A stretch of 64,000 bases of DNA, taken from positions 3,031-67,030 of the forward strand of contig CALXRL010000087.1 in NCBI GenBank assembly GCA_944390735.1, written 5' to 3'. The DNA comes from an uncultured Victivallales bacterium. GTDB lineage: Bacteria; Verrucomicrobiota; Lentisphaeria; Victivallales; UBA1829. Within the stretch, counting starts at the first letter, position 1. The number at the start of each line of letters is the position of its first letter. Shown here piece after piece: positions 12,380 through 63,426 of this stretch. A program made the position numbers and the translations under genes. The notes below the pieces were generated by a model. That model worked only from the letters and a program-made list of their open reading frames with translations. It made no database searches and was not told the origin of the DNA.

Positions 12380-14419
12380 TCAGCGGCTTTTTTTCCGGTC
12401 GGGGAACGCCTGCCGGATTCTGGAATAGGGGGCCTCTCCGGGGAGTCCGCGGGAACCGATGATCCAGGCGTTCTCCGGATAGTTGTGCATGGCCAGACTG
12501 TCGCCCCATGGAAAAAGCGGAACATCCGCGGGCACGGAGCCGGAGAGAAACGGAAGCGATGAAACGTCGAGCTGATTGGTTTCCAGAACCGGTTCCGGAG
12601 TGGTTCTGCCGTCGACGGCATGGGTCTGCACGCCGAAATTCGCGGGCGTGTAGCAGACTTCAAACTGCACGTCGTTTCGTTTGAAGCGCACAAACCGATG
12701 CCGGTGGATGGTGTAATCCACCAGCAGAAAGTCGGAATTCATCCGATGAAACTCCTCCAGCGATTTCCACTTGCGCCGACTGTCGATGGTGAAGACGAAT
12801 CCGTTCTGAATGAATTCCAGCTCATCGGTGTCGAACCGGCGGTTCTCCCCATCGTAGTTGATCAGTTCCAGCACCTGATAGCGGGTTTCGTTCCGGAATC
12901 GGATCGCGCACGTTCTCGGAAGGGCGGTCGGGATCAGCGGAACGATGTGGAGGAAGACCTCGCCCGTTTCGATGGAGACGGGCACGACTTCGGCACTCTC
13001 CCCTTCTCCTCCTTCGCGGACGGCTCCATTGCCGATCACGCTGCGGCGGATTGTTCCGTAATGCGCGGGAAAGACGATGTCCAGTTTCAGAATGTCCGTT
13101 CGGAGCGGAATGTGTTTCGTCAGATTGGGAATGGTCAGAAGCATTGCCGTATTGGTTTTCTGAATCGCATACGCCCAGGCTTCGGATTCCATGTATTTTT
13201 CATTTTGGAAGCAGCCGTCGGCGGAGCGCTCCTGGATTCCAATGGGAGTGCGGTCCGTCCGATAGCGGTAGAAGACAGCGGAGGAGTCGCGGAAGGTTTT
13301 CACCTCCGGTTGGCGCTTGTAGGTGGCGTAGAGCTGGAGGGTCTGCTCCCCGCCGCAGAGGGGGGTGTCCACCGTGCCGAGGGAGAACTCCTCTTCCATG
13401 TAGGAGACTGTATGATACTCTCCGGCGCAGCCGTTGTAGTGCATCATGCACTCGGCGCGCCCGCGGGTCAGCGCCGGATAGGTGCGCGTTTCGATCAGGG
13501 AGGCCAGCGTCTCCGGAAGATGGAAGTCGCTGTCGATCAGGTCGCAGTATTCCGCGACGGACTGCATGCAGTTGCCTGCAAAATGGATGACCTCCGTTCC
13601 GTCCGGATCAAAGTAGCTTTTCATCAGGTCGCGTCCGGTTGTTTCAGGTCCGAAGAGCAGCCAGAAGAGCATCTGAAGCGAATGATTGTGTCCGGCACAG
13701 TCGATTGCATATGCCCGGCACTGGGGGCCGCCGCTCATCCTGGTGCCGGGATGATAGTGCAGAAGCACTTCCGCCCAGAGGCGTTCTTCGCACTCCTCCG
13801 CGATCCGCCGAACCCGCGGATCGTGTGCCCGCGCCGCGATTTTCGCCAGATTCGAAAGCGTGATCGCCGAGTAGGTCGAAGAGTTGAACTCGCTTGCCCA
13901 TGCCGAACGCGAAAGAAGACGGCGGAATTCATTCAGATTCCAGACCCCCTGCTCATACGCCTGTTCGCACTTCAGCTTTTCTCCTCCGAGGATCAGTGCC
14001 TTGGTGGACATCATCGGCATGTTGTCGTTGCATCCGTGGAACTTGAGATCCGACTGGGCCGATCCTTCGTAGGTCCGGAAAGCCTGACGGGCATGATGCG
14101 TCATGACCGCTCTTGCCTTGTCCGTCAGAAGCGGATCGAATTCCGCGAGAAATCCTGCAAACAGATTGGATTGAAAGACGTTGTACCGTCTTCCCTCCGG
14201 AGTGTCGTTGTACCGTTCGATCATCCGGTTGGCCAGCGCCGCATCCTCCGCTTTTCCCCGGAGAAGCGCGGGGAGGATCCAGACCGGCTCGCGCCACGGA
14301 GGATTGAACTGCGGGATCCTGCCGGAGCCATCCGAATTCAGCACAGAGGAGAGGTGACGGCGCACGGCGGAAAAGAATTCGTTCCGCCGCGCATCAACAG
14401 CTTCCTTGTTCCACGGCAT
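12380..14419 (-). CDS. 679-aa cytoplasmic protein of unknown family; candidate oligosaccharide lyase/hydrolase by context
   Basis: A GGAGG RBS lies 11 nt upstream of ATG 14419. There is no signal peptide. It starts 6 nt after the stop of the beta-helix gene. Family not recognised. Confidence 0.7.
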   Translation of the reverse strand: MPWNKEAVDARRNEFFSAVRRHLSSVLNSDGSGRIPQFNPPWREPVWILPALLRGKAEDAALANRMIERYNDTPEGRRYNVFQSNLFAGFLAEFDPLLTDKARAVMTHHARQAFRTYEGSAQSDLKFHGCNDNMPMMSTKALILGGEKLKCEQAYEQGVWNLNEFRRLLSRSAWASEFNSSTYSAITLSNLAKIAARAHDPRVRRIAEECEERLWAEVLLHYHPGTRMSGGPQCRAYAIDCAGHNHSLQMLFWLLFGPETTGRDLMKSYFDPDGTEVIHFAGNCMQSVAEYCDLIDSDFHLPETLASLIETRTYPALTRGRAECMMHYNGCAGEYHTVSYMEEEFSLGTVDTPLCGGEQTLQLYATYKRQPEVKTFRDSSAVFYRYRTDRTPIGIQERSADGCFQNEKYMESEAWAYAIQKTNTAMLLTIPNLTKHIPLRTDILKLDIVFPAHYGTIRRSVIGNGAVREGGEGESAEVVPVSIETGEVFLHIVPLIPTALPRTCAIRFRNETRYQVLELINYDGENRRFDTDELEFIQNGFVFTIDSRRKWKSLEEFHRMNSDFLLVDYTIHRHRFVRFKRNDVQFEVCYTPANFGVQTHAVDGRTTPEPVLETNQLDVSSLPFLSGSVPADVPLFPWGDSLAMHNYPENAWIIGSRGLPGEAPYSRIRQAFPDRKKSR

Positions 14420-14425
14420 GGCGGA

Positions 14426-16681
14426 TTATTCCTCCTTGAGAAACGGATAGTTCAGGGTCTGATCGAGAGATCCGAGTTTCCGCAGCGCCAGCATGGAGCG
14501 GATGGTCAGCGCGGGGTCCTCCTTCGCTCCGGTCAGATTCAGCTGCGCACGATTGTATTCGGACGAGCCGTTTGAACCAAGGAAAAAGACCGGATGATTT
14601 TCGGGCAACACCTTCAGTCCTTTCAGATAGAAGTAGGTTCCGGAAAAACCCAGTTTGCTGGAGGTGTCCGTAACGGAGATCCCGATTTCGGACTTCGGCG
14701 CATAGAACTGCGAGGCGAAGAAGTCGATGCCTCCGCGGAAGCCGTCGATCCGGATGGGTTTGTCGATTTTGACGCATCCCATGGTGACGTGTCCTTCCGG
14801 ATCGCCGCTTTTTCCGAGAAACGTGAGCGTTTCCGGCATTGCCTGTTCGATATAGAAGTCGCTGGTGGTGAAGGGATGGCTGTCCTCCAGATAGACGCTG
14901 TACCGCGAAAGAGTGGCCAGGCGGGTGATGATTCCGAAGAATCCGCCTCTTGCCTTCCCCTTCGCCCAGACGGTCCCTTCGTAACCGACCCGCTGAAGAA
15001 TGGTTGCCGCCCCGCTGTTGAAAACATGAATGTTGCCCTCGGTATTGTTCAGAATGACGGTGTCCTTCGCCGTCAGGTTTTCAAAGCGGAAGCCCAGGTG
15101 GAAAGGAATGAAAACGTATTTTCCTGCGACATAGATAGAGTCATAGGTGACAAGGGAACCGTTCTTCGAGGGATACTGCCGGAGATCCGCTCCGCGTCCC
15201 TGAAAATCACAGACTTTTCCATGGGATGCGGCATCCTCCCGTTTCGGCGCGGGCCTGAAGACGAGACCGTCGCGTTTGATGCACATGCTGCTCAGATGAA
15301 GTCTTCCTTCGGGACGGACGTTGATTGCGTTTTCATCGGGAGCGCCCGCAAAGAGGATCTCCGCTTTCATTGTCGATCCGCCGAACCGGAACTCCTTTCC
15401 GCAGACTTCCAGCGGTCTGGTGGTGCGGTACGTCCCGGCGGGCAGATAGGCGATCGCGTTTCCGCCATGGGATTTTGCCGCGTCGATGGTTTTCTGAATG
15501 GCGGCCGTATCGTCGGTTTTTCCGTCGCCCCTGGCTCCGAAATCCGTTACCGCGTCAAAGAGTTTGCCCGGAAGGGGGACGGTTTTCGGAAGGAAACACA
15601 TGCGTTCCGAAAGTCTGACGGGAGAGCGTCCCGGGATCGAAATCCGTGTCCTTGCGCGGAGGGGGACTTTGGAAAACTGCCGGAAGCCGAGAAGCGTGTT
15701 GTTCGCGTCCAGAACCGGCTGCGCCGGATCCGCCTGAAGAAAACAGACGGAGGAGTTCCGATGTTTCAGCGTATTGTCAAACAGCGTGAGCGGCGCGCCG
15801 GAGGAGAGAATGGCCGAGTCGGTTTTCCAGTCGACGATCAGACAGTTTTCGACGGTCATCGGGGCAACCGGGTTGCGGAACTCCAGAAACCGACCCGATC
15901 CGACGGAAATCGAACGACGGATGCTTGACGCATGTTCCGGATTGGCGGAGACATCCGTCCCGTTGTTTTCAAATTTGCAGTTGCGGACGTAGAAATTGCC
16001 GTTGAGACATTCGACTCCATAGCGTTTGTTGTTCCGGAAATGACAGCCGTCAAAGGAAAAGTTGTAGTCGTTGAACCGGAGGAATCCGGCTCCGGTGTTG
16101 CAGTTGTCAAAGATCATGTTCACGAAAGCCGTTTCCGCTCCGCACGCCTCCTTTCCGAAGAGAATTCCGTATTCCCGGAAGTTCTTCAGCTCCATGTACT
16201 GGTGATAAAGATGGGTTTCAAACAGGTTTTTCCCGTTGATGAAATTCGAGTGGAGGATGCCGGTGGAGGCTTTGCCGCCGCCGTCGAGAACGAAACCCTT
16301 CATGCAGTAGTGAAGCATGCCGTAGATGCGGATCATGGTGCCGTTTTCCGGTCCGGCATAGCGGAGAATCGTGGAGCGTCCATGACCGTAGAATGCGTTC
16401 CCGAGCAGACGTCGCTCACTTGATTTCTGCTGTTTCCGGATGCGGAGTTCCTCTTTGATGAGATAGGTGCCGGGAGGAAAATAGAGGATGTCGCCATCTT
16501 TCAGTTCCAGAAAGAGTTTCTGGAGGGGTTTTGTGTCATCGGTTTTTCCATCCCCTTTGACGCCGTGATTCCTGACGTTGATCCAGTCGCTGCCCGGAAT
16601 CCAGTTCAGGTCCGGGAGGGTTGCTCCCCGGAGGAGCAGCGCGGAGAACAGTGCGGCGAAGAGAAATAAGAACTTTTTCAT
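14426..16681 (-). CDS. secreted two-lobed right-handed beta-helix protein (pectate-lyase superfamily, GH55- or GH28-like)
   Basis: The signal peptide is MKKFLFLFAALFSALLLRG. The N-cap motif occurs twice: VRNHGVKGDGKTDDTKPLQKLF and VTDFGARGDGKTDDTAAIQKTIDAA. Confidence 0.85.
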   Translation of the reverse strand: MKKFLFLFAALFSALLLRGATLPDLNWIPGSDWINVRNHGVKGDGKTDDTKPLQKLFLELKDGDILYFPPGTYLIKEELRIRKQQKSSERRLLGNAFYGHGRSTILRYAGPENGTMIRIYGMLHYCMKGFVLDGGGKASTGILHSNFINGKNLFETHLYHQYMELKNFREYGILFGKEACGAETAFVNMIFDNCNTGAGFLRFNDYNFSFDGCHFRNNKRYGVECLNGNFYVRNCKFENNGTDVSANPEHASSIRRSISVGSGRFLEFRNPVAPMTVENCLIVDWKTDSAILSSGAPLTLFDNTLKHRNSSVCFLQADPAQPVLDANNTLLGFRQFSKVPLRARTRISIPGRSPVRLSERMCFLPKTVPLPGKLFDAVTDFGARGDGKTDDTAAIQKTIDAAKSHGGNAIAYLPAGTYRTTRPLEVCGKEFRFGGSTMKAEILFAGAPDENAINVRPEGRLHLSSMCIKRDGLVFRPAPKREDAASHGKVCDFQGRGADLRQYPSKNGSLVTYDSIYVAGKYVFIPFHLGFRFENLTAKDTVILNNTEGNIHVFNSGAATILQRVGYEGTVWAKGKARGGFFGIITRLATLSRYSVYLEDSHPFTTSDFYIEQAMPETLTFLGKSGDPEGHVTMGCVKIDKPIRIDGFRGGIDFFASQFYAPKSEIGISVTDTSSKLGFSGTYFYLKGLKVLPENHPVFFLGSNGSSEYNRAQLNLTGAKEDPALTIRSMLALRKLGSLDQTLNYPFLKEE

Positions 16682-16720: not shown

Positions 16721-17521
16721 TTATTGTATGGCGCGCCAGTTCCGGTTGCGGAACGGGTCGAATTTTGTGAGAACGTGTTTGAGGTTTCCGGTGTGTCCGT
16801 CGGCATAGAGAAGATTGACGCTCAGATTATGGCGGTAGTCCACGTGATTGACACTGTCCGCATACTGCGTGGTCCCCTCTTCGCCGAGTTTGCCCTGCGC
16901 GGCGGAGTAGTCAAGACGGTAATTGACGCTGTCGAGCAGCGCAAACAGATTCGAGGGCGATCTGATTTTGCTGGTTTTTGCTCCGAGATAGCATGGATAC
17001 AGATCCCAGTTCAGATTTCCGTCCGCGTCGACACCCGCCTGGCCGTTGGCTCCATAGCTGGTATGCTTGCGTGCGGGAGCCGCATGGGAGAGCGGATATC
17101 GCTGCTCCATGTTCTCCGGACAGCGCCAGAAACCGAGACTGGATGGAGTCTCCACCTCCGCAAGCAGACCGTCCGGAGGCGCCGGAAGCGTTTTGGAATC
17201 GGTCAGCATGGTCATCCAGAACGGCGCCGTGTTGTAGGGACTGGCGGAGTGCGGAAGCTGACCGTCGAAGGTGTCGGCATACGTGTTGAAGGCCGTCCCG
17301 AACTGCTTCATGTTTGCGGTACAGGAAATCTGCCTCGCTTTTCCCCGGGCTGAGTTCAGCGCGGGAAGAAGCATCCCCGCAAGGATTGCAATAATGGCAA
17401 TAACCACGAGGAGCTCTATCAATGTGAAATTTTCCGTCCGCGGTCCGATTCTCCGGAAGGGATGTGTTCCGGCTTGCACTTGATGCTGTTTCTGCTTCAT
17501 TGAGTTTCCTTTTCGATTCAT
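16721..17521 (-). CDS. prepilin-type N-terminal domain protein with C-terminal H-X9-DG motif (pseudopilin-like, DUF1559-like)
   Basis: It has [29 protein letters not shown] and the C-terminal [13 protein letters not shown]. Its ATG overlaps the upstream regulator stop as ATGA. Confidence 0.9.
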
Positions 17522-18714
17522 ATAAAAGATTTTATCTGTCGGAGGACCGGCCGGGAGAAAGTCATGGAGCAGCGACCTGTGACTCCTTCCAGAAAGTCCT
17601 GATACAGTTCATACAGAGCGATTGCGCGGGCGCGGGAATCAAAATCAATGGAGGAGAAGCCCTCCGCTTCCGAAAGACCGTTGTTGTCGCAGCCGAGAAA
17701 ACGGAACTTCTTCAAATCCGCATTCATCCGCCGGAGACGGCTGCGCAGGGAGACGGCGGTTTCATCATTGGCGCACACACACAGAATCCGGGAGCGGCGC
17801 GCGGTGCGCTTCAGCAGCGTGCGTGCGGTTTTCGAATTGATGAATCCGCTCAGATCCCCGCTGTTGTCCGGGCGGATGAAAAAATCGGATTTGAGATAAT
17901 CGAACGGCAGATTTCTGGTGCGTGCGAAATCCGCGCAGGTCTGGGCGCGGCTGTCCGCGAAAAAGGCGGCGGATTCGTTGGCCGTGTAGACCAGGTGTTC
18001 CGCACCGTCGGCAAGATGATGCAGCGCCTCCAGAAGCGCCGTGTGGTTGTTGACAACCGTGAATCCGGTGCCCGGACGGAAAAAATCAGCGAACTGCATC
18101 ACTTCCTCGGTATCCTGCATATAGAGTGTCAGCGCAATTTTCTCTTTCTGAAGCGTCTCCAGAAGCTCCTGCCAGGGGTAGAGTGTGTTGCGGTTCGGGC
18201 GCATGGCGGCCCACCGGATTCCGTTTCCCCGGAGGGAGCGGAGGAGCTGGGAAAGATCGTTCCAGGTCCGCCACTGGTTCTCGCGGAGATTGTAGACGAC
18301 CAGGCGGATTCCGTGGGCCTGGAAGGTTCGTTCGATTTCATCGACCAGCTGCCAGCGGATGTCCTCCCGGCAGAGATTGTCGTCGCAGTTGTTGGTGAGG
18401 AGCAGGGCGATGCAGCTGCCGGTCTGCGGTTTGCTGTCCACGGGACGGCGGGCCTCCACGGCGCGCTTCAGAATACGGCTTCCTGTTTTCGTGGAGGTCT
18501 GGATGTATCCGTCCCGTTGCAGTTTGGCCAGCGCGCGGCGGACCGTGTTGCGGGAGAGTTCATAGCGTTTGGCCAGCTCCTCCTGCGTCGGCAGGAACTC
18601 CTGTTCCGGAGGCATCGTGGAGAATTCATCCAGCAGAAGACGTTTCAGCAGTTCATACCGCGGAATAAAGCGTCCTTTTTCATAGTGATAATCCTGCAGT
18701 CGGCGTTCCGGCAT
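17518..18714 (-). CDS. AraR-type regulator: GntR-family wHTH fused to a LacI/PBP1-like sugar-binding domain
   Basis: The HTH region is [31 protein letters not shown]. The C-terminal region [15 protein letters not shown]...[11 protein letters not shown] resembles the LacI family. Confidence 0.85.
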
Positions 18715-18741: not shown

Positions 18742-18770
18742 ATTTTAGCATGAGAGAGCGCCTTTGACAA
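18742..18770 (-). promoter_or_regulatory. sigma70-type promoter candidate for the cassette A operon (TTGTCA-N17-TAAAAT on the minus strand)
   Basis: The plus strand reads atttta at 18742-18747 and tgacaa at 18765-18770 with a 17-nt spacer. The site lies about 28 nt upstream of ATG 18714. Confidence 0.45.
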
Positions 18771-41017: not shown

Positions 41018-41028
41018 TTTTGGACTCC

Positions 41029-41775: not shown

Positions 41776-41833
41776 TTATGTTTTCTCCTGTTGATTTCTT
41801 GTCTGTTCTGTTTTATAGTAAACCCTGCATGAA

Positions 41834-49705: not shown

Positions 49706-49734
49706 TTGCAATCAGGGAATCGGGATGCTATACT
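49706..49734 (+). promoter_or_regulatory. sigma70-type promoter candidate for the GspG-like gene (TTGCAA-N17-TATACT)
   Basis: TTGCAA lies at 49706-49711 and TATACT at 49729-49734. The site lies about 30 nt upstream of the AGGAG RBS and ATG 49766. Confidence 0.55.
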
Positions 49735-49765
49735 ATCTCAGCATCAAACAGTCAGGAGAACGGTG

Positions 49766-53274: not shown

Positions 53275-56200
53275 TCTGCTTGAGCCTTTCCTGTTTGCTG
53301 AGCGGGATGCCAGAGTCCATACCCGTTGCGGAATCGGTGGTTGTTGCTGGTTCCGGACCAGATTTCCGAAGAGAGTCTGCCATCCGGTGTTGTATTGTTG
53401 ATTTTGATATCCAGTCCAAGCAGGCCGGAGGATTTCATTCCGAGCTCGGACCATGGAATTCGGGCGTTTGCCTGGTATCCGTCCCGAGTCATGGTAATTT
53501 CGGATCGGATGTTTTCCGCCTTCATGCCGAGAGTGCTTTTCAGTTCCGGCAGACCGTTCGAGGAGGGGGGCGCGAGGAAGAGGCGTCTGACACTTTTCCC
53601 CGCATGAGCATCCCCCGGATTGGTCAGCGGAGCGGAGTCGAAGAAGAGTTCAATGGAATCGCCGTTCCACGGGGCGTCGGCTTTTCGCGGGCCGCGTTCG
53701 ACATCGCGCACGGTGACGGTCAAATGCAGTCCCTCTTTTGTGCCGGAAGCCGTAAAGGAGAAGCCTTTTCCATGTCCCGTTTCCCCGTCGCGGAGGAGTT
53801 TCCTGCGGAACGGCGGAAGAGTCAGAGTGAAATTGCGTTCGCCGTCTGCAAGATAGACCTTTGTTTTTCCGGGAATCGCCTGTTCCGCTCCGGGGAAGAA
53901 AAAGAGGGCTTTTCCGTTGATTTCCATCTCCGCCGTTTGCGGTTTTTCGCTGAAATCCGGCCGGACGACCGCCGTGATCTTGTTCGGTGAAAGATTCTGA
54001 ATCTCCAGCAGGAGAGTCCGCCGCCGGTTTTGCAGAAACGGAAATGCCGCGAGGATCCGGAAGGAGAGGACTCCCCGAAGCTGAGCCTTTTTCAGATCGT
54101 TCCGGAGATTTTTCCCGCGGAGAAAAACGGGAAATTCTGAAAGAGGAATTGTTTTTCGGGAGGGGATCGCATTCAGGTACATGTCCAGGACTTCGAATTC
54201 TCCATCCGGGAGTTCGAGGATGAAGTTCTGGGCGTCGGGTGTTTTCCATACGGCGGCGAGCTGCTGACCGTTCCGCATCCGGTAGAGGTAACCGGTTGCG
54301 CCGGAGGGCCACTGGAAGCGTTCCATCGGCGCGGCTCCGTTGAGAAGATGCGATGCAACACTCTGTCCGGTGTAGAGATCGTGGGGAATATAACCCGAAT
54401 GAACCATTCCATCCCCGAGTTCCCAATGGGGTGCGAGTTCGTTCTGGAGGAACTGCTCGTCGGCAATCGGCATGGTCCGGGCGACTCCTTCTCCCAGGTC
54501 AATCAGCGTGCGGCGGAGCAGATGCTGCGCGTGAGAGGCGCGTCCGGCAACGGCATAATGCGCACTTGGTGCCGGCCCGATGTAGTAGAGTTCCGTGTTC
54601 CAGATCGGGAGATCGGGAGCATAGTTCTTAAGGAGGTCGCGTAGATTTCTGAGGGCGCTCTGGGCAGACAGAGGGGAGGAATCCAGAGGAGAGGCGTAGG
54701 GATGAAAGCTGAGAGCATCGCAGTATTTCAGAACTCCGCTTTTGCCCATGTCGGTGAGGAACTGATCGGTTTTTCCTCCGTAGTCGGTAGTGAGTCCGCC
54801 GCCGATGATGAGGGCATCGGGATCATTGCGTTTGATGATTTGCGCGGCACTTTTGAGATAGGGAATGTATTCTTTGGCTCCGGGCAGAGCAATGTTGGGT
54901 TCATTCGTGATTTCGTAAGCGGCGATTTGCCCCTTGTAGTGAGAGGAGATGGCTTCGGCAAGACGTGTCCATGCAGCGGGGTCGGGAGAGACGCCGTCCC
55001 AGAGGCCTTTCATTTTGTGTATGACTGTTGCGGGGGATTTCAGAAGCCAGTCGGGAAGAGGGGAGAAGACACGTTTTTCGTTTCCCCAGTCGCGCAGATA
55101 CAGCATGTTGCCGAATACCGGCATCAGGGCGAATCCGTTTCGGCGGGCAAACTGAAAGCGGTCGTCGGAGAGTGTCCAGTCGAAATTTCCCGGTTCCGGT
55201 TCCATGAGCTTCCATTGCAGTCCACTGTCGTGAAGACGGAGAAAGACGACTCCGGAGCGTTTGAGAAATTCCGCGAATTCCGGATCCCCTCCGCCGTTCA
55301 TGGTCCGGAAGGCGTTCGGAATTATCCCTTTGAACGGAATGCCGAGATTGCTGTTTATGCCGGTGGCAAACTCCTTTTTCGGATTGATAGGCCGGTTCTG
55401 CGGACGGGGAATTTCTGTGAAGAACCAGTCTCCGAGGCCCTGGCGGAAACCGTCGCCTTCCAGAAGCCCGGAAAGACGGAAATGACCGAAACGCCGGGTT
55501 TCGGTGTCGAGCGGAAGAGTGAGCGTTCCGTTCGGAGGAACTGTTTGGGAGATCGTCCGCCCGGGGAAGGGGATCTCCGGCATCAGCGTGTCCCGGATTT
55601 CCAGACGGGCGTGAATCGGACGGGGGCGATCCGTATAATTCACAAGCCGCAGTTCACAGGGAAGCGTTTCTCCAGGGAAACGGACCCGGCGGTCGCCGCA
55701 GACCGCTCCTTCTGCGGGAGCGGATGGCGCATAAGGGAGAAGATCCTTCCCCTCCCGGATTTGAAGTGCGTCGAACCAGACACTTGCCGAGGAGGGTTTC
55801 CCCTTCCGATCCCAGCGGAAGAACGTGAAATACCAGCTCCGTTTTCCTTTTGCCGTGAAGGTGATGGAGTGGCGTTTCCATTGGGTCGAGGTCCGGAAAT
55901 TCCGTGCAGTGAACATCGACCAGTCGCTGAAGGTGGGGGTGACCATCTCTCCGGCATACTGCCCGGCGCGGATGTCGACCGGTTCGCTGCTTTTCATATA
56001 CCAGGAGAAGGTATAGACCCTGCCGGGAATCAGTTTGTACTCCCGGCTGACCAGTTCGATCACGTCTCCTCCGGGATTGTCGAAGCGGATGCTCTGTTTC
56101 CCATGGATTTTTTCCATGGTGTCAAACACGGGTTCCTGAAAGTGTTTTGGATTTCTCTGCCGGACGTACCGCCGGATGCCGAATTCCGCTCGTCCGAGTT

Positions 56201-56288
56201 CAAAACTGGAGTTGCGGATCGGATTGGCATCCGCGAGGAGGGGTCCGGCTGTCCCAGTAAGGAGAATGAGGAGAAAAGAGAGCTTCAT
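53271..56288 (-). CDS. secreted 1005-aa glycoside hydrolase, clan GH-A-like core flanked by CBM-like modules
   Basis: The signal peptide is [19 protein letters not shown]. The candidate acid/base motif is YEITNEPN and the candidate nucleophile motif is IWNTELYY. The C-terminal CBM9-like block is [13 protein letters not shown]. Confidence 0.85.
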
Positions 56289-56857
56289 TTCCCTTTCTCC
56301 CAGATGAGATCCTTGGCATAGAGCTCGTTCAGGGAGTTCTGGAAAAGTCCAAACAGAAGATAGAGTTTGCCGAGTGACAGCGTGGAATCCGGCGTCGCTT
56401 CCGGAACCTTGAACTCAAATGAGTACCGTTTCCACTCTTTGTCCACCCGGAAGTTGATCGGGTTGAACCATTGCTTCCGTTTTTTCTCCCACGGACTGGT
56501 CAGCTGGATCTGGGCAAGACCCTCCCGATCGCCTTTGAACCAGCCGGAAACAAGGTAGGTCGTGCCGGCTTTGAATTCCAGATCTTTTGTTTGAACGCGC
56601 AGACGATCGAACGTCGCAAGTCCCGATTTTCTGGTGATTTTGAGCGCTTTTCCTCCATTGGCATGATCAAGGGCTTTGATGATTTGCACGGTCCCGGCCG
56701 TATCGTCCCCGCCGATGCTCCAGCGCCGTTCCTTTCTGAATTGTGATGGCTTTTCTCCTGTTTCTCCGTCAAAGGAAAAGAAGATTTTCTGTCCGTCGGC
56801 ACAGAACGGGAGGAGGAGGGAAAACGAGAAGATGAATGTCAAAGTTCGCTTTTGCAT
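56285..56857 (-). CDS. small secreted CBM-like beta-sandwich protein
   Basis: The signal peptide is MQKRTLTFIFSFSLLLPFCA. The pattern GGKALKI...GTTYLVSGWFKG...WKRYSFEFKVP resembles CBM4/9-type modules. It overlaps the hydrolase start as ATGA. Confidence 0.7.
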   Translation of the reverse strand: MQKRTLTFIFSFSLLLPFCADGQKIFFSFDGETGEKPSQFRKERRWSIGGDDTAGTVQIIKALDHANGGKALKITRKSGLATFDRLRVQTKDLEFKAGTTYLVSGWFKGDREGLAQIQLTSPWEKKRKQWFNPINFRVDKEWKRYSFEFKVPEATPDSTLSLGKLYLLFGLFQNSLNELYAKDLIWEKGK

Positions 56858-56983
56858 AAGAAATCCTTTCCTTGGTTGTTTTGATTGGCTTTTTCTGGAA
56901 ATTATAAAACATATTTCTTGAAAAATATTCGATAAAGTATATTTTTATATAGATAAAAGTAAAAATATATCAGGAAAAGTAAA

Positions 56984-57898
56984 ATGCGTCTATTGGATGA
57001 TCTTTCCATCTTCCTCCAGCAGAAAGCCCGGCTGCAATATCATGCAGGGGCTTTTTCTCTTTATCAGTCTGGAGAGAATCCCGACTCAGTACTTGTTGCT
57101 CAACGCAGTGAAGTGTTGGAACAGCTGGGAATTTTCTGTTGTTATCTGGGGCGGTCCGAAATCAGGGATTTTTATCTGCAGCGCCGCGTGAAACAGAATT
57201 TTCTCTCTCTGGAATACATCTATTCCGGAGAATTCTACATCCGCAACGGAGACCGGGGATATCTGGGGGAAGCCGGCGATCTCTTTCTCCTGCATCGCGG
57301 AATGGATCACGACCTGATGTTCCTGTCGGAAAAAAAATGCCGCAAAATGGGAATGATTCTTTACGGATGGATGCTGCCCGATCTTCTGAAACTCTTCCAG
57401 CTGGATCATGTCGATGTGATTCATCTCCCCGATTCAAAACGGCTGGATGATCTCTTCGACCGGATCCGAGATACGCTTCAGAACGCGGTGAGCCATGCCT
57501 CCTGCGAACAGAACGCCGCTTATACATTCGGTCTGCTTCAGATGCTTTCCAATGTCTCAAAAACAGAACCGCTTCCTCCCGAGATCGCCAGAATTCTCGA
57601 ATTTTTTGAAGCACACTGTTCCGAACCGCTGAATATCCGTCGGCTGGCATCCGAATGGGGGATGAGTCTGCCGACTTTGAATAAACGCTTCCGTGCCGCC
57701 GTGCATATGACGCCGTATCAGTATCTGCTTCGTCTCCGCCTTCAGCGCGCGGCATATCTCCTTCAGACGGACGACTGGACAATCAAGGAAGTCGCGGAAC
57801 TGGCGGGATATCGCAATCCCCTGCATTTTTCCTCGGAATTTCATCGGTTCCACGGCTGTTCGCCCCGGGAGTTCCGGAAGAAGCTGCATTCGTTTTGA
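56984..57898 (+). CDS. AraC family transcriptional regulator
   Basis: The C-terminal double HTH is IRRLASEWGMSLPTLNKRFRAAVHMTPYQY...IKEVAELAGYRNPLHFSSEFHRFHGCSP. Confidence 0.88.
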   Translation: MRLLDDLSIFLQQKARLQYHAGAFSLYQSGENPDSVLVAQRSEVLEQLGIFCCYLGRSEIRDFYLQRRVKQNFLSLEYIYSGEFYIRNGDRGYLGEAGDLFLLHRGMDHDLMFLSEKKCRKMGMILYGWMLPDLLKLFQLDHVDVIHLPDSKRLDDLFDRIRDTLQNAVSHASCEQNAAYTFGLLQMLSNVSKTEPLPPEIARILEFFEAHCSEPLNIRRLASEWGMSLPTLNKRFRAAVHMTPYQYLLRLRLQRAAYLLQTDDWTIKEVAELAGYRNPLHFSSEFHRFHGCSPREFRKKLHSF

Positions 57899-57962: not shown

Positions 57963-58718
57963 TCAGGGCTTGTATTTCAGTCCCTTGCTGCCGCCGGACC
58001 AGGCGTACTCCTGGAGCGGAAACCAGAACTTGCACTGCGGGGTGTCCGCTCCCCAGCTGGTGACGTACAGCGCACTTTTCCGATAGGAGGCAACATGTCC
58101 GTCAAACAGAGCGCAGTTGATGAGCCCGTCATGATTCTTGCTGGAAAGCGTCAGCGAGGAGAGGTTGCCGTCGACTTTTCCCCAGACGGAGAAGCAGTAG
58201 CCCGGATAAGCCGTGCTGATTTCCGTTCCCCGGTCGTTGTCGCCGAAGAGCAGCAGCTGGCTCGCCTGACGGATCATGCTGGTTTTGATCGGAACATAGT
58301 GCTCGTTATAAGCCGGCAGCAGCGAATCGTACAACGCAATCCCCAGCTTGCCTTCCCAGAAACTCCAGTTTTTTACCGAGGGACAATGCAGTTTCGTACT
58401 GTTTGTGTAGGGCTGGAGTTTGTAAAACCAGTAGGTCCCCGGTTTCGAGGAGTCGTCCATGACGGAACAGACGAAATCGTCGAAGTCCAGCGAATACTGC
58501 AGATAGGCAAGGGAAAACTGCTTCTGATTGGAGACACAGTTGATCTGTCTGCCACGCGCGCGCACCTTGTGCAGCGCCGGAAGAAGAAGCGCCGCCAGAA
58601 TGGCGATGATCGCAATCGTTACCAGAAGCTCAATAAGCGTAAAAGGAGGACGCTTCCGCAGAAAAACGGAACGTCGAAACAGATGAAAATTCATCGGGGT
58701 GTCGGTGGAATGTCGCAT
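57963..58718 (-). CDS. prepilin-type N-terminal domain protein with H-X9-DG motif (pseudopilin-like)
   Basis: It has [29 protein letters not shown] and the C-terminal [13 protein letters not shown]. It starts 12 nt after the GH5 stop. Confidence 0.9.
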
Positions 58719-58730: not shown

Positions 58731-61700
58731 TTATGGAAGACGTTTCAGCAGGATTCCGCGGAATTCACACTCCGCGGAGGTGGCCGAAAGGGTGAGGTTG
58801 CGGAATGCTCCGATATCGCACGGAAAACTTCCCGCATTTTTTCCGTTGCAGCGGACGGTGAGACACTTGTTATTCCAGTCAAGTTCCGCGGTCTGCCATT
58901 GTCCGGCGGTCATCCGCATTGTGCCTTTCGGCAGAACCGTTTCCGGACGGGAGGCGGATGATTCCTTCATGAATGTCGCTCCCGCAATCCGGTTCGGTCG
59001 GAAAATGGTCATGAGATTGCCTTTTTCTCCGATCAGATTCACCTGGGCAAATCCGTTCTTTTCGGAAAGAATCCGATATTCAAAACGGAGACGGAAGCCG
59101 GAATTCAGTTCCCCTTTGAAAACAGGAAGGCTTTTCCAGGCGTTGAGATTGTTCAGCTTATGAACACTCTGTGGAGATGCGTGAAAAAGAGTGGAGCTCT
59201 CTTTTGCCGCGGTCTGGAAATCGCGCAAGACGTTTTCCGGATTGCTGTATCGCAGGCGGACATTGCGGAATTCGCAGTTCGCGTATGCCGCCGAAAGGGA
59301 GATCGCCGTGATTTTCCCGGACTTGAAATCCACCGTTCCGCAATCCTCTCCGTTTCTCAGAAGCGAAAGATCGTTTCCCGTCAGGGAAAATTCAAGCGTT
59401 TCCCATTCGCCCTTTTTCAGCTTGAAGTTCGCTTTGGGAAAGCCGCTTTCCGGACGGTTGAGTCCGGGCGATTTCTGCGTACAGGTGAAGTTCACACTGT
59501 TCGGACGGCGCACCAGCTTGAAACTTCCGTTCGTTCCGGCGATGTCCACCGTTGCGAATCCTTTTTCCCCGTTCAGGATCCGGCATTCGAGCGAAAGGGT
59601 GAGCGCCTCCCCGGTCTCTCCCCGGAAAACGGGAATGCTCTTCCAGGCGTTGAGATTGTTCAGGGGAAGAACCTGTTTTTTCGCGCTCTGATAGAGCAGA
59701 AGATCCCTTCCGGTCTGTTCCATGGGGCCGACCGGTGCAAAGGTTCCGGCTTCCTTGCCGAGATTGCGGATGAGCACATCCTTGATCTCCAGATCGGTCG
59801 ATGCGCCGGAGACGCTGATAGAAGCCGTTTCCTCCGGAACAAACGGGATCTCTCCGCAGGGAATGCCGTTTGCCGCGACTTTCAGCTTGCCGTTTGCGCA
59901 GATGATATCGTACTGTCCCCAGTTGCGTTCGGGCACCGTGACGCCTCCGTTTCGGAATCCGGCCTCCCGACCGCCGTTCAGAAGATAGGAGACCCCGCGC
60001 GGCCGGATGAGAATGGTGCAGGAATCTTGTTCCCCGGTCAGCCGGATGGAGCCGAATCCCTTGTTCGAGCGCAGAATCCGCATTTTAAGCGTGATCTGGA
60101 AGTTCTCCCGGAAGGGTTCGGAGAAGAGGGGGATGGAGTTCCAGGCCTTGTAGTTCTTCAGCGGCTGAAGAGCGGGTTTGTCACACAGAATTCTGCCGTA
60201 TTGTTTCAGCGGAGGACGGACCGCATCGAATTTTTCCGGGAATTTGTTCTTTGCAAAATAGTCGTTCAGAGCCTTGGAGCGGCCGGTTTCGGCGACCGTC
60301 TTCAGCGAGGCATCCCTGTGGGGATCCCATGCCTGAAATTCGGCGATGCAGTGCCACATCCAGTCCCATCCGTATTCCTCGAAGAGTTCGATGCAGTCGC
60401 GCGTCCATTTTCCCCCGTCCTCCGCCCAGCTGACGCAGCAGAATTCGGAGACGAAAATCGGCACATTGTATGCCTGCTGAAAGTGACGCGCCGGAGCCAG
60501 CTCTTTGCGGATCATCTCCTTGTCCCACTTCAGTCCTTCAATGACCGAGGGATAGGTGATCGTCTTTTTCTGCGAACCGAGCCGCTGATGGCTGAACGGA
60601 AACGGGGCGTAATGATGAATTCCGTAAATGATGTTCTTCGCACGGATCGGACGCAGACGATCCATCGCGCGCTGTCCCCACCATGCCTCCTCCTGAACGA
60701 TCATCCAGCGGTCCGGGTCGATCCGGTTGATCCTTTTCGCGATCGTTTCCATGAGGTTGTTGTAATCGAATTTCGGTTCGATCCGGATTTCCATTTCGTT
60801 GTAGAGTTCAAACGCCCAGATGGCCTTTTCGCCTTTGAAGTGCGCGGCGACTTTGTCCCAGAACTGGATGTTGCGGTCATGCGCTTTTTTCTCCAGCGCG
60901 GAGGCGTGGGTCTCGGTATTGCCGATTTTGTCGCGGAAGCCGCAGAACTGCAGAACGCCGAGGGCTCGGCTGTGTTTCTTCAGAAAATAGAGAAAACGGT
61001 CGAACTGGCGGATGGAATGGTCGCAGAACTCGTCGAATTCCTTGTCGCTGATGTTCCAGCGGGGAGCGTTGACCGTGAATTTGTAGAGATTGCAGTTTTT
61101 CCATTCGGAGAAATGTTTGCGTGCGACGCGTTCCTTTGAAATCAGTCCGGCTCCGGTGTTGAGCCCGCGCAGCCGTCCGAGAGCGTGTCCTTTCGCGGGC
61201 GGCGGAGCATTCAATTTCGGCGCGGGAAGCGGACCTTCGACTACGGCAATTTTCAGATTGCGGAAAAAGATTTCCCCCCGGTTGCCGATGATTCCGAGCG
61301 AAAGGGTTGCTTTTTTCAGATCAATGGGAACGCGGGTGCGGAATTTCAGGGGTTTCCAGTCGAAGGATCCGCTGTATCCGTTGCAGCATTCGCTGTACCA
61401 GAGGCATTCGGTGTCGTAGTTCATCACGAAGCGCACGCCCTCCCACGGCACTTTCGGGACCGAGACGGAAAAGGCCTTTGCTTCCACCGAGATTTCCAGC
61501 ATGTAATTTTTATATTTTTCCAGAAGCGGGAGTGTTCTGGAGGCGAGAACCGCGCGATCGCGCGTCTGAGCCATATCGCCCAGAAGATCGCGGTTTGCCA
61601 TGGCTCTGGAGGCCAGTTTGCTCTGTTCGCTTTCGGATGTTACAATGACATGCAGTCCGTTTGCCCCGAATGAAATTCCTTTTTCCGTCCGCCACTCTTT

Positions 61701-61805
61701 TCCCTGAGTCAGCGGATCGCGGAGAAGCACCTGTTCCGCGGCGGAAAGCGTTCCGCAGAGACAGAGACCAGCAAGCAGAATCCGTCGTCCGATGTTTGGT
61801 TTCAT
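58731..61805 (-). CDS. secreted glycoside hydrolase family 5-like enzyme with N-terminal CBM-like module and three C-terminal tandem beta-sandwich repeats
   Basis: The signal peptide is MKPNIGRRILLAGLCLCGTLSAA. The GH5-type motifs are WAFELYNEMEI (acid/base), GIHHYAP and PIFVSEFCC (nucleophile). Confidence 0.88.
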   Translation of the reverse strand: MKPNIGRRILLAGLCLCGTLSAAEQVLLRDPLTQGKEWRTEKGISFGANGLHVIVTSESEQSKLASRAMANRDLLGDMAQTRDRAVLASRTLPLLEKYKNYMLEISVEAKAFSVSVPKVPWEGVRFVMNYDTECLWYSECCNGYSGSFDWKPLKFRTRVPIDLKKATLSLGIIGNRGEIFFRNLKIAVVEGPLPAPKLNAPPPAKGHALGRLRGLNTGAGLISKERVARKHFSEWKNCNLYKFTVNAPRWNISDKEFDEFCDHSIRQFDRFLYFLKKHSRALGVLQFCGFRDKIGNTETHASALEKKAHDRNIQFWDKVAAHFKGEKAIWAFELYNEMEIRIEPKFDYNNLMETIAKRINRIDPDRWMIVQEEAWWGQRAMDRLRPIRAKNIIYGIHHYAPFPFSHQRLGSQKKTITYPSVIEGLKWDKEMIRKELAPARHFQQAYNVPIFVSEFCCVSWAEDGGKWTRDCIELFEEYGWDWMWHCIAEFQAWDPHRDASLKTVAETGRSKALNDYFAKNKFPEKFDAVRPPLKQYGRILCDKPALQPLKNYKAWNSIPLFSEPFRENFQITLKMRILRSNKGFGSIRLTGEQDSCTILIRPRGVSYLLNGGREAGFRNGGVTVPERNWGQYDIICANGKLKVAANGIPCGEIPFVPEETASISVSGASTDLEIKDVLIRNLGKEAGTFAPVGPMEQTGRDLLLYQSAKKQVLPLNNLNAWKSIPVFRGETGEALTLSLECRILNGEKGFATVDIAGTNGSFKLVRRPNSVNFTCTQKSPGLNRPESGFPKANFKLKKGEWETLEFSLTGNDLSLLRNGEDCGTVDFKSGKITAISLSAAYANCEFRNVRLRYSNPENVLRDFQTAAKESSTLFHASPQSVHKLNNLNAWKSLPVFKGELNSGFRLRFEYRILSEKNGFAQVNLIGEKGNLMTIFRPNRIAGATFMKESSASRPETVLPKGTMRMTAGQWQTAELDWNNKCLTVRCNGKNAGSFPCDIGAFRNLTLSATSAECEFRGILLKRLP
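58734..60230 (-). repeat. three tandem ~166-169-codon domain repeats inside the GH5 gene
   Basis: The protein motifs are LKNYKAWNSIPLF, LNNLNAWKSIPVF and LNNLNAWKSLPVF. The DNA 23-mer ttccaggcgttgagattgttcag is identical at 59134-59156 and 59641-59663. A diverged copy lies at 60139-60161. Confidence 0.8.
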
Positions 61806-61849: not shown

Positions 61850-61878
61850 ATTATAAGCGGAACTCCATGGCGTGTCAA
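61850..61878 (-). promoter_or_regulatory. exact-consensus sigma70 promoter (TTGACA-N17-TATAAT, minus strand) for cassette E
   Basis: The plus strand reads attata at 61850-61855 and tgtcaa at 61873-61878. Confidence 0.65.
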
Positions 61879-62001: not shown

Positions 62002-62040
62002 GATTCGTGGAGAGAAAACAGAAGAAAGGAGTCCGGAAAG

Positions 62041-63426
62041 ATGGCAGGAAAGCGGAGAAGGATTCCGGCGACGAAACGTCTGGCCGGGGAATGGGAGAAG
62101 AGGATCCGCTCCGGGGAACTGAGGCCCGGCGATCCCCTTCCGTCCATGCGTGTGCTGGCGGAGGAGCGGAACGTGGATCTCTCCTCCGTTCTGGGGGCCT
62201 ACCGTCTGCTGGAGAAGCAGGGATTGATTGTGCGGGAGCACGGACGCGGCTGCTATGTCGGTTCGGAACCGTATCCGCCCCATCCCGGGCGGCGGCTTTA
62301 CGGATTTCATGAGAACTACGGGACGGATCTGGGGTGTCCGCCGGAGGAGTTCATCTGCTTTGATTTCGGGCCGTACAATGATTATCCGCGCTACTTTGAT
62401 TTTCTGAAGGATCGGATCGAACGGGAACCGGGACTGGTCCTGATGGATGAAAACATGCTTCCCGCGATGGCGGAGGAGGGGCTTCTCCGGCCGCTGGATC
62501 CTCTGTTGCGGGAGGTGCTGCCGGAAACGCTGCTCAAGGAGATTGCTCCGATCTGCCGTCAGGTCTTCCAGTATCGATCCGCCACGTATGCGCTTCCTCT
62601 TTTCTGTCTGCCGGTGATGGCCTACTTCAACCGGCGTCTTTTCGACGAGGCGGGAATCTCCCTGCCTGGCGAGAACTGGAGCTGGGAGACCCTGTTTCAG
62701 CTTCTGAATCAGTTCACGCTGTTTTCCAACCAGGGACGCTTTGAACGCGGCGCAATGGGGCTTCTGCTGGATCCATGCGGATGCCTGCCGATCATCACTC
62801 AGTTCGGCGGAGAGGTGTTCGACCGCAATGCCAACTGCGTCTTTGACAGCGAGGCTTTTTTCCGGGGACTCTGTTTCTTTGAAAAAATCATCCGTCATCT
62901 CGGCTGCTGTGTTCACAAGTGGGGGGACAAGCGGGAATATCTTGGCGAACTGCTCGCCGATGGAAGGATCGCATTCATCCTCGGGTCCGAACAGGATGCC
63001 GCGTTTGCCCGGGAACGACTCGCTCCGGAGGCATTTTTCGAACTGCCTCTTCCCGGATATGCCACGGGGCAGAAAACCGCGTTTTCCGCTCTGGGAATCG
63101 GTCTTTCCGCCGGAGGGTACGATCCCGCGGAGCTTCTCCGCTTTCTGGCGGAACTCTATACGCGGGAAAACCTTCTCGCCTTTGCAAAGAAGCTGCGGTG
63201 TCTTCCGGTCCTTGACCGGGAGGGGCTGACCGAAACATGCCGGAAGGCTCGTGATCAGAGCCGTCCGGTGGTGCAGTGCGCCACCCGGAACAGCGCGGAG
63301 GTCTGCCGGATTCTCTTTCACCGGCTTTTCTGCTGGATTCCGGTCCAGCGGCAGGAGCTTCGGGAGCTGTCGGAGGAGCTGTCCGGCATTATGAGGCGTC
63401 CGGTCAAGGGGGGACCGCCCGCTTGA
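62041..63426 (+). CDS. GntR-family wHTH fused to an extracellular-solute-binding-protein-like (MalE-fold-like) domain
   Basis: An AAGGAG RBS is present. The HTH is LPSMRVLAEERNVDLSSVLGAYRLLEKQGLIVREHGRGCYV. The remaining ~380 aa resemble ABC sugar SBPs (YFNRRLFDEAGISLPGENWSWETL). There is no signal peptide. Confidence 0.8.
   Translation: MAGKRRRIPATKRLAGEWEKRIRSGELRPGDPLPSMRVLAEERNVDLSSVLGAYRLLEKQGLIVREHGRGCYVGSEPYPPHPGRRLYGFHENYGTDLGCPPEEFICFDFGPYNDYPRYFDFLKDRIEREPGLVLMDENMLPAMAEEGLLRPLDPLLREVLPETLLKEIAPICRQVFQYRSATYALPLFCLPVMAYFNRRLFDEAGISLPGENWSWETLFQLLNQFTLFSNQGRFERGAMGLLLDPCGCLPIITQFGGEVFDRNANCVFDSEAFFRGLCFFEKIIRHLGCCVHKWGDKREYLGELLADGRIAFILGSEQDAAFARERLAPEAFFELPLPGYATGQKTAFSALGIGLSAGGYDPAELLRFLAELYTRENLLAFAKKLRCLPVLDREGLTETCRKARDQSRPVVQCATRNSAEVCRILFHRLFCWIPVQRQELRELSEELSGIMRRPVKGGPPA

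Follow-up and report, generated by a model that had tools for sequence, protein, structure and literature searches.

We uncovered five gene cassettes (A–E; Table 1) in a 64-kb window, which is the whole stretch of DNA analyzed here (positions 3,031 to 67,030 of the forward strand of contig CALXRL010000087.1, assembly GCA_944390735.1, from an uncultured Victivallales bacterium), each combining a regulator, a large Sec-exported enzyme of the glycosidase type and a type-IV-pilin-like protein, or pseudopilin, of the H-X9-DG (DUF1559) family. Going by their sequences, these appear to be independent operons, presumably responsive to sugars, of a kind commonly found in Victivallales/Lentisphaerota. 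Inheritance, retention and loss concern the entire unit, and the usual layout in independent Lentisphaerota loci is a GntR/LacI-type regulator, a pseudopilin and then a glycoside hydrolase (GH). We tentatively propose that the pilin-like protein enters a shared filament, akin to that of type II secretion systems (T2SSs) or type IV pili, as a substrate-specific subunit, and that its variable head binds the glycan targeted by its operon.

Conserved glycosidase operons in the window

All 18 open reading frames (ORFs) assigned to the cassettes in an initial annotation of this DNA are present when checked by their coordinates, and a self-trained gene caller reproduces them among the 57 genes of the window. 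In a six-frame motif scan, [15 protein letters not shown] occurs in exactly five ORFs, each of them on the minus strand; as that annotation had described, every one codes for an H-X9-DG pseudopilin, has a same-strand gene for a large Sec-exported enzyme of the glycosidase type no more than 39 nt away, and adjoins a regulator gene. Within the cassettes successive genes are separated by -4 to 39 nt, the exception being 88 nt before the 261-aa gene of cassette C. Housekeeping genes (rplU, rpsP-trmD-rplS, ptsHI, etfBA, adk-map-infA and truA) separate the cassettes, which hence do not constitute one island. A Pfam scan of the cassette genes bore out the earlier statement that they include no SusC/D, ABC or other transporter, and it recovered no outer-membrane importer or binding protein in them; SusC-like TonB-dependent transporter and SusD-like domains were likewise absent from the other scanned genes of the window, and no Rfam family or tRNA was found within it.

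Perfect TTGACA-N16-18-TATAAT sites number exactly three in the window, and 100 shuffles yielded none; they all lie on the minus strand and precede, by 45–59 nt, the leading gene of a cassette, namely those for the B pseudopilin, the C ROK regulator and the E GH5 enzyme. The very strength of these cassette promoters suggests that control is mainly by repression; a search of all five promoter regions for inverted repeats that might serve as operators gave just short 10-nt arms, which are unconvincing. Terminator-like matches are no commoner than in shuffles, and none lies convincingly between a pseudopilin gene and that of its enzyme. Given overlaps or gaps of at most 39 nt, a promoter at the head of the cassette and no convincing internal terminators, we strongly infer that pseudopilin and enzyme genes are co-transcribed. 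With their co-located carbohydrate-active enzymes (CAZymes) and dedicated regulators, the cassettes would represent substrate-specific units, presumably regulated by their substrates.

One might suspect that, in so abundant a family, adjacency is meaningless, or that these genes spread selfishly next to promoters. The family is huge, with 66,028 clusters at 50% identity matching at E ≤ 1e-30, the window alone holds five copies in 64 kb, about one per 10–13 kb, and in Victivallis the pseudopilin genes are targeted, at their conserved 5′ end, by a mobile element. However, shuffling the order of the 57 genes (1e6 trials) placed all five pseudopilins beside the five large secreted enzymes in a fraction of only 5.9e-5, so that at the level of the window the adjacency exceeds random expectation. 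Moreover, orthologous cassettes are retained in different flanks through 43–87% identity, the pseudopilin heads, which are under purifying selection, diverge together with their partners, and regulator and GH neighbors are enriched relative to same-locus controls (see below). Chance adjacency is thus ruled out by the permutation and the conserved orthologous cassettes, and the wider notion of chance or hitch-hiking strikes us as hardly credible. Further, the five pseudopilins are just 31–34% identical in pairwise comparisons (alignment of the five) and must therefore be old paralogs, which rules out a single recent duplication; together with the retention of cassettes in different flanks, this agrees with the initial view that the module has been selected rather than recently duplicated once.

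The orthologs of pseudopilin C form a series from 89 to 42% identity, after which there is an abrupt fall to the paralog background of about 34%. The order ROK regulator, pseudopilin, GH2 enzyme (~1225 aa) and ~260-aa protein is kept, with differing flanks, in the loci L081, L082, L083 and L091, whose pseudopilins are respectively 87%, 54%, 44–47% and 43% identical to that of the window; in the first three, the regulator shows 84, 52 and 55% and the GH2 enzyme 88, 64 and 68% identity. The components of the cassette thus diverge at similar rates. L081 comes from a sister species (~80% nucleotide identity to the window), in which the pseudopilin head is 89% conserved and cassette D is also kept; the nearest relative that we found is GCA_902495425.1, at ~80% nucleotide identity, and looking up the exact sequence of pseudopilin C returned no record. 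Cassette E, with its divergent GntR-SBP regulator, GH5 enzyme and then pseudopilin, is kept at 73% and 63% pseudopilin identity, and in one of its versions (L085) the C-terminal module of the enzyme differs while the pseudopilin is retained. L081 is devoid of the segment equivalent to 37980–42697 of the window (compare L081:15542-15564), and what remains there of the B enzyme and AraC genes is the 3′ end of each, which indicates that cassette B was deleted as a unit. In L091, cassette C is expanded to the order ROK, GH20, pseudopilin, pseudopilin, GH2, 263-aa protein and GH2, and its tandem pseudopilins are 73% identical, as the result of a recent duplication within an operon.

The regulators of cassettes A–E belong, by Pfam, to the GntR, AraC, ROK, AraC and GntR+SBP_bac_1 types. 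The label "AraR-type", initially given to regulator A, fits its GntR helix-turn-helix (HTH), which alone matches an AraR-type regulator, and is unverified for the protein as a whole. The fusion of a GntR HTH with an SBP_bac_1/SBP_bac_8 domain travels with cassette E (59–73% identity) and is presumably a cytoplasmic oligosaccharide sensor. Sec signals had been ascribed to every enzyme; among the eight partner proteins other than regulators, seven show one by eye. The exception is the 679-aa protein encoded in cassette A, which has neither a Pfam match nor a PDB sequence match, implying that export does not extend to all cassette proteins. Other than the Sec signal peptide, no sorting or anchoring signal is recognizable in the cassette enzymes (750–1400 aa). 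The cassette B enzyme has no Pfam match; it possesses residues that are invariant across 77 homologs (R504, H506, N619-E620, H716, Y718 and E765), a set that we take to be the catalytic signature of GH5/clan GH-A, and its AlphaFold model (predicted local distance difference test score, pLDDT, 93.4) matches GH5 mannanases and mannosidases with E ~1e-9. Hence, this protein is predicted to be a GH5-like glycosidase, whereby five of the five cassettes encode glycosidase-type enzymes. A secreted protein of 259–263 aa with no Pfam match, which is found at 40–70% identity in all orthologous copies of cassette C, is a putative accessory of the GH2 operon. Elsewhere in the window, a minus-strand unit combines a regulator and enzymes without a pseudopilin; none of its proteins has a clear Sec signal peptide, consistent with pseudopilins occurring only alongside enzymes that are exported.

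Table 1. Coordinates of cassette genes, promoter-like sites and further features (positions in the window unless a locus is named)
Feature	Position	Strand	Remarks
Cassette A promoter-like site	18742..18770	-	TTGTCA-17-TAAAAT, 10/12 + extended -10 TG; ~28 nt upstream of regulator start
Cassette A regulator	17518..18714	-	GntR-family HTH + C-terminal domain of ~300 aa
Cassette A H-X9-DG prepilin-type protein	16721..17521	-	266 aa; start overlaps regulator stop by 4 nt
Cassette A secreted enzyme	14426..16681	-	751 aa; two Pect-lyase_RHGA_epim/beta-helix lobes
Cassette A 679-aa protein	12380..14419	-	6 nt downstream of enzyme A gene
Cassette B divergent AraC-family regulator	42018..42809	+	ORF may start at 41904
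Cassette B promoter, perfect sigma-70 consensus	41834..41861	-	TTGACA-16-TATAAT; 59 nt upstream of pseudopilin start
Cassette B H-X9-DG prepilin-type protein	41029..41775	-	248 aa
Cassette B secreted GH5-like (clan GH-A) glycosidase (predicted)	37787..41017	-	1076 aa; 11 nt after pseudopilin gene
Cassette C promoter, perfect sigma-70 consensus	49532..49560	-	TTGACA-17-TATAAT; 48 nt upstream of ROK start
Cassette C ROK-family regulator	48231..49484	-	HTH_24 + ROK
Cassette C H-X9-DG prepilin-type protein	47391..48224	-	277 aa
Cassette C secreted GH2 enzyme	43693..47373	-	1226 aa
Cassette C secreted 261-aa protein	42819..43604	-	no Pfam match; present in every orthologous cassette C seen
Cassette D divergent AraC-family regulator	56984..57898	+	
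Cassette D two weaker promoter-like sites	56936..56992	-	9/12 each; upstream of CBM gene
Cassette D secreted CBM_4_9 protein	56285..56857	-	190 aa
Cassette D secreted enzyme	53271..56288	-	1005 aa; CBM9 + weak clan GH-A similarity; 4-nt overlaps on both sides
Cassette D H-X9-DG prepilin-type protein	52579..53274	-	231 aa; above TIGR04294 cutoff
Cassette E divergent regulator	62041..63426	+	GntR HTH fused to SBP_bac_1 domain
Cassette E promoter, perfect sigma-70 consensus	61850..61878	-	TTGACA-17-TATAAT; 45 nt upstream of GH5 start
Cassette E secreted enzyme	58731..61805	-	1024 aa; GH5 + 3keto-disac_hyd
Cassette E H-X9-DG prepilin-type protein	57963..58718	-	251 aa; 12 nt after enzyme gene
GspG-like ORF	49658..50380	+	sixth prepilin-type ORF
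Pseudopilin-free unit	4928..10614	-	regulator + enzymes
Pseudopilin-free unit, IclR regulator	6861..7607	-	
Pseudopilin-free unit, FAD_oxidored + HEAT protein	7591..10614	-	
Pseudopilin-free unit, GFO_IDH_MocA oxidoreductase	4928..6388	-	
Orthologs of the cassette C ~260-aa protein	L081:14621-15406, L082:13756-14535, L083:13013-13792, L091:12702-13493		
Tandem pseudopilins of expanded cassette C	L091:7139-7909, L091:8001-8771		73% identical
GntR HTH + SBP_bac_1/SBP_bac_8 regulators accompanying cassette E	L084:5321-6685, L085:3038-4402		
MITE-like element	L089:5868-6245, L083:8200-8532		~390-420 bp

Recurrence in Lentisphaerota and comparison with other phyla

A scan in which a single genome represented each GTDB species gave at least 599 pattern matches, and among the matches listed 80 loci span Lentisphaerota, Verrucomicrobiota, Planctomycetota and Kiritimatiellia. 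The initial annotation had suggested testing for an enrichment of enzyme neighbors across the PVC (Planctomycetes–Verrucomicrobia–Chlamydiae) group: this is significant in Lentisphaerota and is not seen in our small samples of Verrucomicrobiota and Planctomycetota. Signal-peptide proteins of at least 400 aa make up 30% of the tightly linked same-strand neighbors in Lentisphaerota versus 10% of the non-adjacent genes in those loci (Fisher p = 0.006), a figure that is just indicative because the signal-peptide rule is crude: it misses the obvious signal peptide of enzyme A and wrongly flags a Rossmann motif. More weight attaches to the Pfam-annotated contexts: the same-strand upstream neighbor in Lentisphaerota is a regulator with GntR/LacI and Peripla_BP_3 domains in seven of the ten cases tested, regulators account for 7/19 neighbors overall as against 5/94 same-locus controls (p = 6e-4), and the downstream neighbor, where it is at least 500 aa long, is a GH or CBM-type protein in 9/10 cases (GH78, CBM9, DUF6259, GHL6/10, GH123 twice, GH71, GH39 and GH20).

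Three paralogs picked solely for lying on Mb-scale contigs are embedded in comparable clusters, with the gene orders GntR-PBP, pseudopilin, GH123, FAD oxidoreductase, BNR and GDSL (L086); pseudopilin, 1431-aa LNB-phosphorylase-like protein, 988-aa protein and melibiase (L087); and LacI, pseudopilin, 660-aa protein, GH39, esterase and GH39 (L088). Likewise, a hidden Markov model (HMM) scan of the loci L081–L089 recovered 16 H-X9-DG pseudopilins, and, as we read their annotated surroundings, all 14 that could be assessed adjoin same-strand genes for glycosidases, esterases or large enzymes. The original reading that each enzyme carries its own pseudopilin has to be revised, since there is usually one per operon of 1–5 enzymes (L086, L088), and two in tandem in L091. 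A homolog of the cassette B enzyme with 33% identity (L090) has no prepilin gene within 17 kb and is instead accompanied by an MFS (major facilitator superfamily) transporter and an extracytoplasmic function (ECF) sigma factor. When pseudopilin similarity was compared with the GH family of the partner (three GH123, two GH5-like), there was no tracking beyond orthologous cassettes, and it therefore cannot separate binding of the glycan from binding of the enzyme.

Outside Lentisphaerota, the neighbors of H-X9-DG genes vary widely and, in the small sample at hand, are mostly not enzymes. In four Planctomycetota loci (L025, L069, L073 and L077), small signal-peptide proteins of 137–191 aa are encoded 120–190 nt downstream of the H-X9-DG genes, one with a weak CarboxypepD_reg match and another matching PepSY_TM; the family may thus have a different partner in that phylum.

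A separate feature of these genes is an element resembling miniature inverted-repeat transposable elements (MITEs), whose copies are 86–91% identical and are found in two distant pseudopilin paralog loci of Victivallis-type genomes (L089 and L083; Table 1). It has an internal 58-nt inverted repeat and sits at the site coding for FTLIELL, and the L089 copy is flanked by a near-perfect site duplication of ~24 nt. Insertion of this element explains why pseudopilin genes of V. vadensis have been called at an excessive length of 435 aa.

The pilin-like protein and its possible roles

All five pseudopilins match PF07963 (N_methyl) and PF07596 (DUF1559), the prepilin N-terminus being additionally recognized by TIGR02532; they conform to the N-terminal pattern of type IV pilins, in which F+1, E+5 and a hydrophobic alpha1-N stretch of about 20 residues come after a short basic leader. 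Their scores mark them as divergent members of the family, with A (30.8) and C (24.4) above the PF07596 gathering score of 23.3 and B, D and E below it, and D alone (20.4) above the TIGR04294 cutoff of 19; most homologs carry precomputed PF07596 matches. The invariant core of the five comprises [26 protein letters not shown] along with H-X4-N-X4-D-G-H (i.e., H-X9-DG followed by H), in which H231, D241, G242 and H243 (pseudopilin A numbering) are invariant in 5/5. Among 98 homologs, the F, T, L, I and E of the prepilin N-terminus and the H, N, D, G and H of the C-terminal motif are at least 90% conserved, as are F+1 and E+5 in conjunction with the hydrophobic helix alpha1. Two Cys (C61 and C143, which probably form a disulfide), W95, P144 and Y160 are also conserved across the family, and the segments between them are hypervariable. 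The AlphaFold model of pseudopilin C (98 sequences; pLDDT 83.4, predicted template-modeling score 0.80) features a 50-residue alpha1 (28–78) and a globular five-strand head, with the conserved D-G at the turn of a C-terminal beta hairpin (238–243, 248–252). A PDB sequence search and Foldseek align alpha1 alone to solved pilins (PilA, geopilin and GspG), and neither matched the head to any solved structure. The heads are rich in aromatic residues (W+Y 10.2% versus a background of 4.2%), the enrichment being 2.6-fold for Tyr, 2.1-fold for Trp and 2.0-fold for Asn.

Assignment of the five pseudopilins to GspG itself (TIGR01710, cutoff 88.85) was rejected, their best scores being 20–34 bits over alpha1 only. 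The window has a sixth prepilin-type ORF, which is GspG-like (50.9 bits with TIGR01710, below the cutoff) and devoid of the H-X9-DG motif. Located singly between adk-map-infA and the promoter of cassette C, it is conserved in L081 and may code for the major pseudopilin of a shared machine.

An unusual aspect of these proteins is the residue preceding the prepilin cleavage site. The canonical residue at -1 is Gly, rarely Ala or Ser, and PilD/GspO-type peptidases need the Gly; here, that position is occupied by N, L, N, R and P in pseudopilins A–E, respectively, and by T in the GspG-like ORF. In the loci L001–L080, Gly is found at -1 in only one of the 30 H-X9-DG proteins and one of the 22 other prepilins of Lentisphaerota, while in our Verrucomicrobiota and Planctomycetota samples the residue is Gly or Ala in every case. 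Because the GspG-like ORF also lacks the Gly while F+1 and E+5 are strictly kept, we consider a prepilin peptidase of altered specificity in Lentisphaerota more likely than an absence of processing. The loss of Gly would point to a peptidase with unusual substrate preferences or to no cleavage at all.

In the mechanism that we tentatively favor, the pilin-like protein would insert into the inner membrane via its class III-type N-terminus and then undergo cleavage ahead of Phe+1, through a prepilin peptidase that has lost the requirement for Gly at -1 in this phylum. It would then be incorporated, as a substrate-specific subunit, into a shared T2SS/type IV pilus-like filament encoded elsewhere in the genome, with alpha1, the Cys pair and the C-terminal H-X9-DG hairpin serving as the assembly scaffold and the hypervariable Tyr/Trp/Asn-rich head binding the glycan degraded by the enzymes of the operon. 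The filament could capture or retain the glycan and possibly pull it inward, in a role like that of the SusD/E/F-type binding proteins of Bacteroidota polysaccharide utilization loci (PULs), and the set of subunits made by a cell would depend on the sugars sensed by its regulators. The conservation of F+1, E+5 and alpha1, the combination of alpha1 and head in the model, and the match of alpha1 to PilA, geopilin and GspG support filament assembly. Binding of a glycan is suggested by the lectin-like composition of the head, by the lack of genes for an outer-membrane importer or binding protein in the cassettes and by the precedents of sugar-binding pilins and class III signal peptide proteins, and it fits somewhat better than a strict cargo adaptor, since one pseudopilin usually serves several unrelated enzymes. 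Similarly, the family members without enzyme partners in other phyla make an enzyme-specific basic role unlikely.

Several observations weigh against this interpretation. The head of pseudopilin C has no PDB match to a lectin, CBM or solute-binding protein with Foldseek, and the aromatic content of the GspG-like ORF is likewise high (8.1%), so that the aromatic-rich head is weak evidence for glycan binding. Genes for the peptidase, assembly ATPase, platform and secretin are not found within the 64-kb window, and with Gly missing at -1 the proteins might stay as uncleaved membrane anchors. The neighbor statistics derive from our own gene caller, a crude and conservative signal-peptide rule and small samples; and glycan binding, cleavage and filament assembly are themselves proposals, which draw on sequences, a structural model and analogies.

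A different possibility is that the pseudopilin is a cargo-specific secretion adaptor or tether, which binds the Sec-exported enzyme or enzymes, joins the T2SS pseudopilus and either pushes them through the secretin or displays them on the filament. Enzymes of 750–1400 aa with Sec-only signals would indeed need a route across the outer membrane of a diderm cell if they act outside, and the coupling is tight, down to the 4-nt overlaps of enzyme and pseudopilin in cassette D. Moreover, T2SS export has been suggested for alginate lyases encoded beside their pseudopilin (PMC13274419), and T2SS genes are up-regulated on fucoidan in a planctomycete (PMC11685898). However, an adaptor of this kind is difficult to reconcile with a single pseudopilin for up to 4–5 unrelated enzymes (L086, L088), with cassette proteins that have no signal peptide, with the retention of the pseudopilin in L085 though the C-terminal module of its enzyme differs, with the Planctomycetota and Verrucomicrobiota members that mostly have no enzyme neighbors, and with the 33%-identical B-enzyme homolog lacking a pseudopilin nearby. 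Nor do we know of a cargo-specific pseudopilin in any T2SS studied to date, which we also count against it. Hence, we favor the glycan-specific filament subunit, itself a tentative choice, over the adaptor, which we regard as unlikely.

Less probable still is a membrane-anchored periplasmic module that is left uncleaved and never enters a filament, its head either binding oligosaccharide products for a transporter or sensor, or scaffolding or chaperoning the enzymes at the membrane; it would be comparable to the bindosome (see below), though devoid of a pilus. The missing Gly in 29/30 H-X9-DG proteins and 21/22 other prepilins of Lentisphaerota would be in keeping with such an anchor, as would the lack of assembly genes in the window, the Pfam identifier of the pseudopilin family (SBP_bac_10) and the existence of archaeal sugar-binding proteins with class III signal peptides (PMC3047682). 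Against it, F+1 and E+5 are strictly kept, for which it is difficult to account unless the protein is cleaved and packs into a filament. In type IV pilins, the partner of E5 is the free N-terminus of a neighboring subunit. Further, the lack of Gly also in the GspG-like ORF suggests that peptidase specificity has changed, not that processing is missing, Foldseek detects no solute-binding-protein fold in the head, and no transporter gene occurs in the cassettes.

Precedents and implications

The closest parallel to the cassettes is in Verruconatronum alginivorum (Verrucomicrobiota, Opitutales, 2026), in which a PulG-like pseudopilin with 67 paralogs is encoded in an alginate operon that its authors report, from proteomics, to be upregulated as a single unit, and a second pseudopilin elsewhere in the genome is also over-expressed on alginate (PMC13274419). 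As in the cassettes, a member of an expanded pseudopilin family is part of a non-SusC/D polysaccharide operon with Sec-exported lyases (PMC13274419). Unlike them, it is a single case from another phylum, in a 15-gene cluster with a transporter; the paper presents no general rule, no conserved regulator-pseudopilin-enzyme order and no analysis of the H-X9-DG motif or position -1 (PMC13274419). Beyond this example, an incomplete search found no literature linking DUF1559/H-X9-DG proteins to CAZyme operons, and an earlier description is possible. Thus, a pseudopilin paralog inside a polysaccharide-degradation operon is already known, once, and we found no earlier description of the regulator-pseudopilin-glycosidase layout in Lentisphaerota, the conservation of the unit, the usual ratio of one per operon, the consensus promoters or the loss of Gly at -1.

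Other systems share individual aspects of the cassettes. Like the SusC/SusD PULs of Bacteroidota, they are separately regulated, substrate-specific clusters with secreted CAZymes and an expanded, hypervariable, non-catalytic hallmark family; unlike the PULs, they have no SusC/SusD gene, their hallmark is a type-IV-pilin-like protein, and their regulators are of the GntR, LacI, AraC and ROK types. PUL regulators are usually hybrid two-component systems or ECF/anti-sigma types. The bindosome of Sulfolobus solfataricus likewise features pilin-type N-termini on proteins of sugar acquisition, with many sugar-binding proteins sharing one assembly machine, BasEF; in contrast to the cassettes, it is archaeal and has solute-binding folds and adjacent ABC transporters (PMC3047682), neither of which is seen here, the cassettes having no ABC transporter and the head no solute-binding fold by Foldseek. 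CbpC/GP25 of Ruminococcus albus, a gut glycan degrader, is also a type IV pilin-family protein implicated in polysaccharide (cellulose) binding (PMC3672088), but it is a single pilin, or one of a few, in a pilus biogenesis cluster of a monoderm, with no separately regulated paralogs in enzyme operons. In the papers searched, DUF1559 is described solely as the paralog family with the most members in planctomycetes and without a known function; Planctopirus limnophila has 68 copies and Rhodopirellula baltica 74 (PMC10632474, PMC2754498). Those proteins resemble ours in the prepilin N-terminus, the C..N.KQ motif and the C-terminal H-X9-DG; the Planctomycetota and Verrucomicrobiota members differ in having Gly/Ala at -1 and in not being tightly paired with GHs in our small sample. 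Finally, the minor pseudopilins of type II secretion (the GspH/I/J/K tip complex) and DNA-binding minor pilins such as ComP are specialized low-abundance subunits through which a shared filament contacts cargo or ligand; they differ from the pseudopilins in being encoded in or near machinery operons, as one copy each, and in not being regulated substrate by substrate.

In guts and oceans, Lentisphaerota and further PVC bacteria play a major part in glycan degradation, yet they do without the SusC/D system that accounts for glycan capture in Bacteroidota, which raises the question by which route their large enzymes exit or polysaccharides enter. Pilus-mediated polysaccharide uptake has been proposed for planctomycetes, its mechanisms and players being described as unknown (PMC12673574). 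An extension of the filament-subunit proposal, to which we assign a low probability, is that the pseudopilins are interchangeable glycan-specific subunits of one shared, retractable T2SS/type IV pilus-like machine that draws polysaccharide through a secretin to periplasmic enzymes, as a SusC/D-independent "harpoon" mode of uptake. With every sugar-responsive operon adding a subunit of its own, the filament would be refitted to suit the glycans at hand. If true, this would provide a function for a family of more than 66,000 clusters and name the players behind the uptake envisaged in planctomycetes. Irrespective of that route, the pilin-like gene in Victivallales is a conserved, separately regulated and putatively co-transcribed part of glycan-degrading operons, and with every cassette come a regulator, a promoter, a pilin-like protein and one or more enzymes as a matched set. 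For annotation this provides a rule, namely that an H-X9-DG gene marks a PUL-like operon in Lentisphaerota, and it links a huge family with no assigned function to the use of glycans through a hypothesis that is testable gene by gene.

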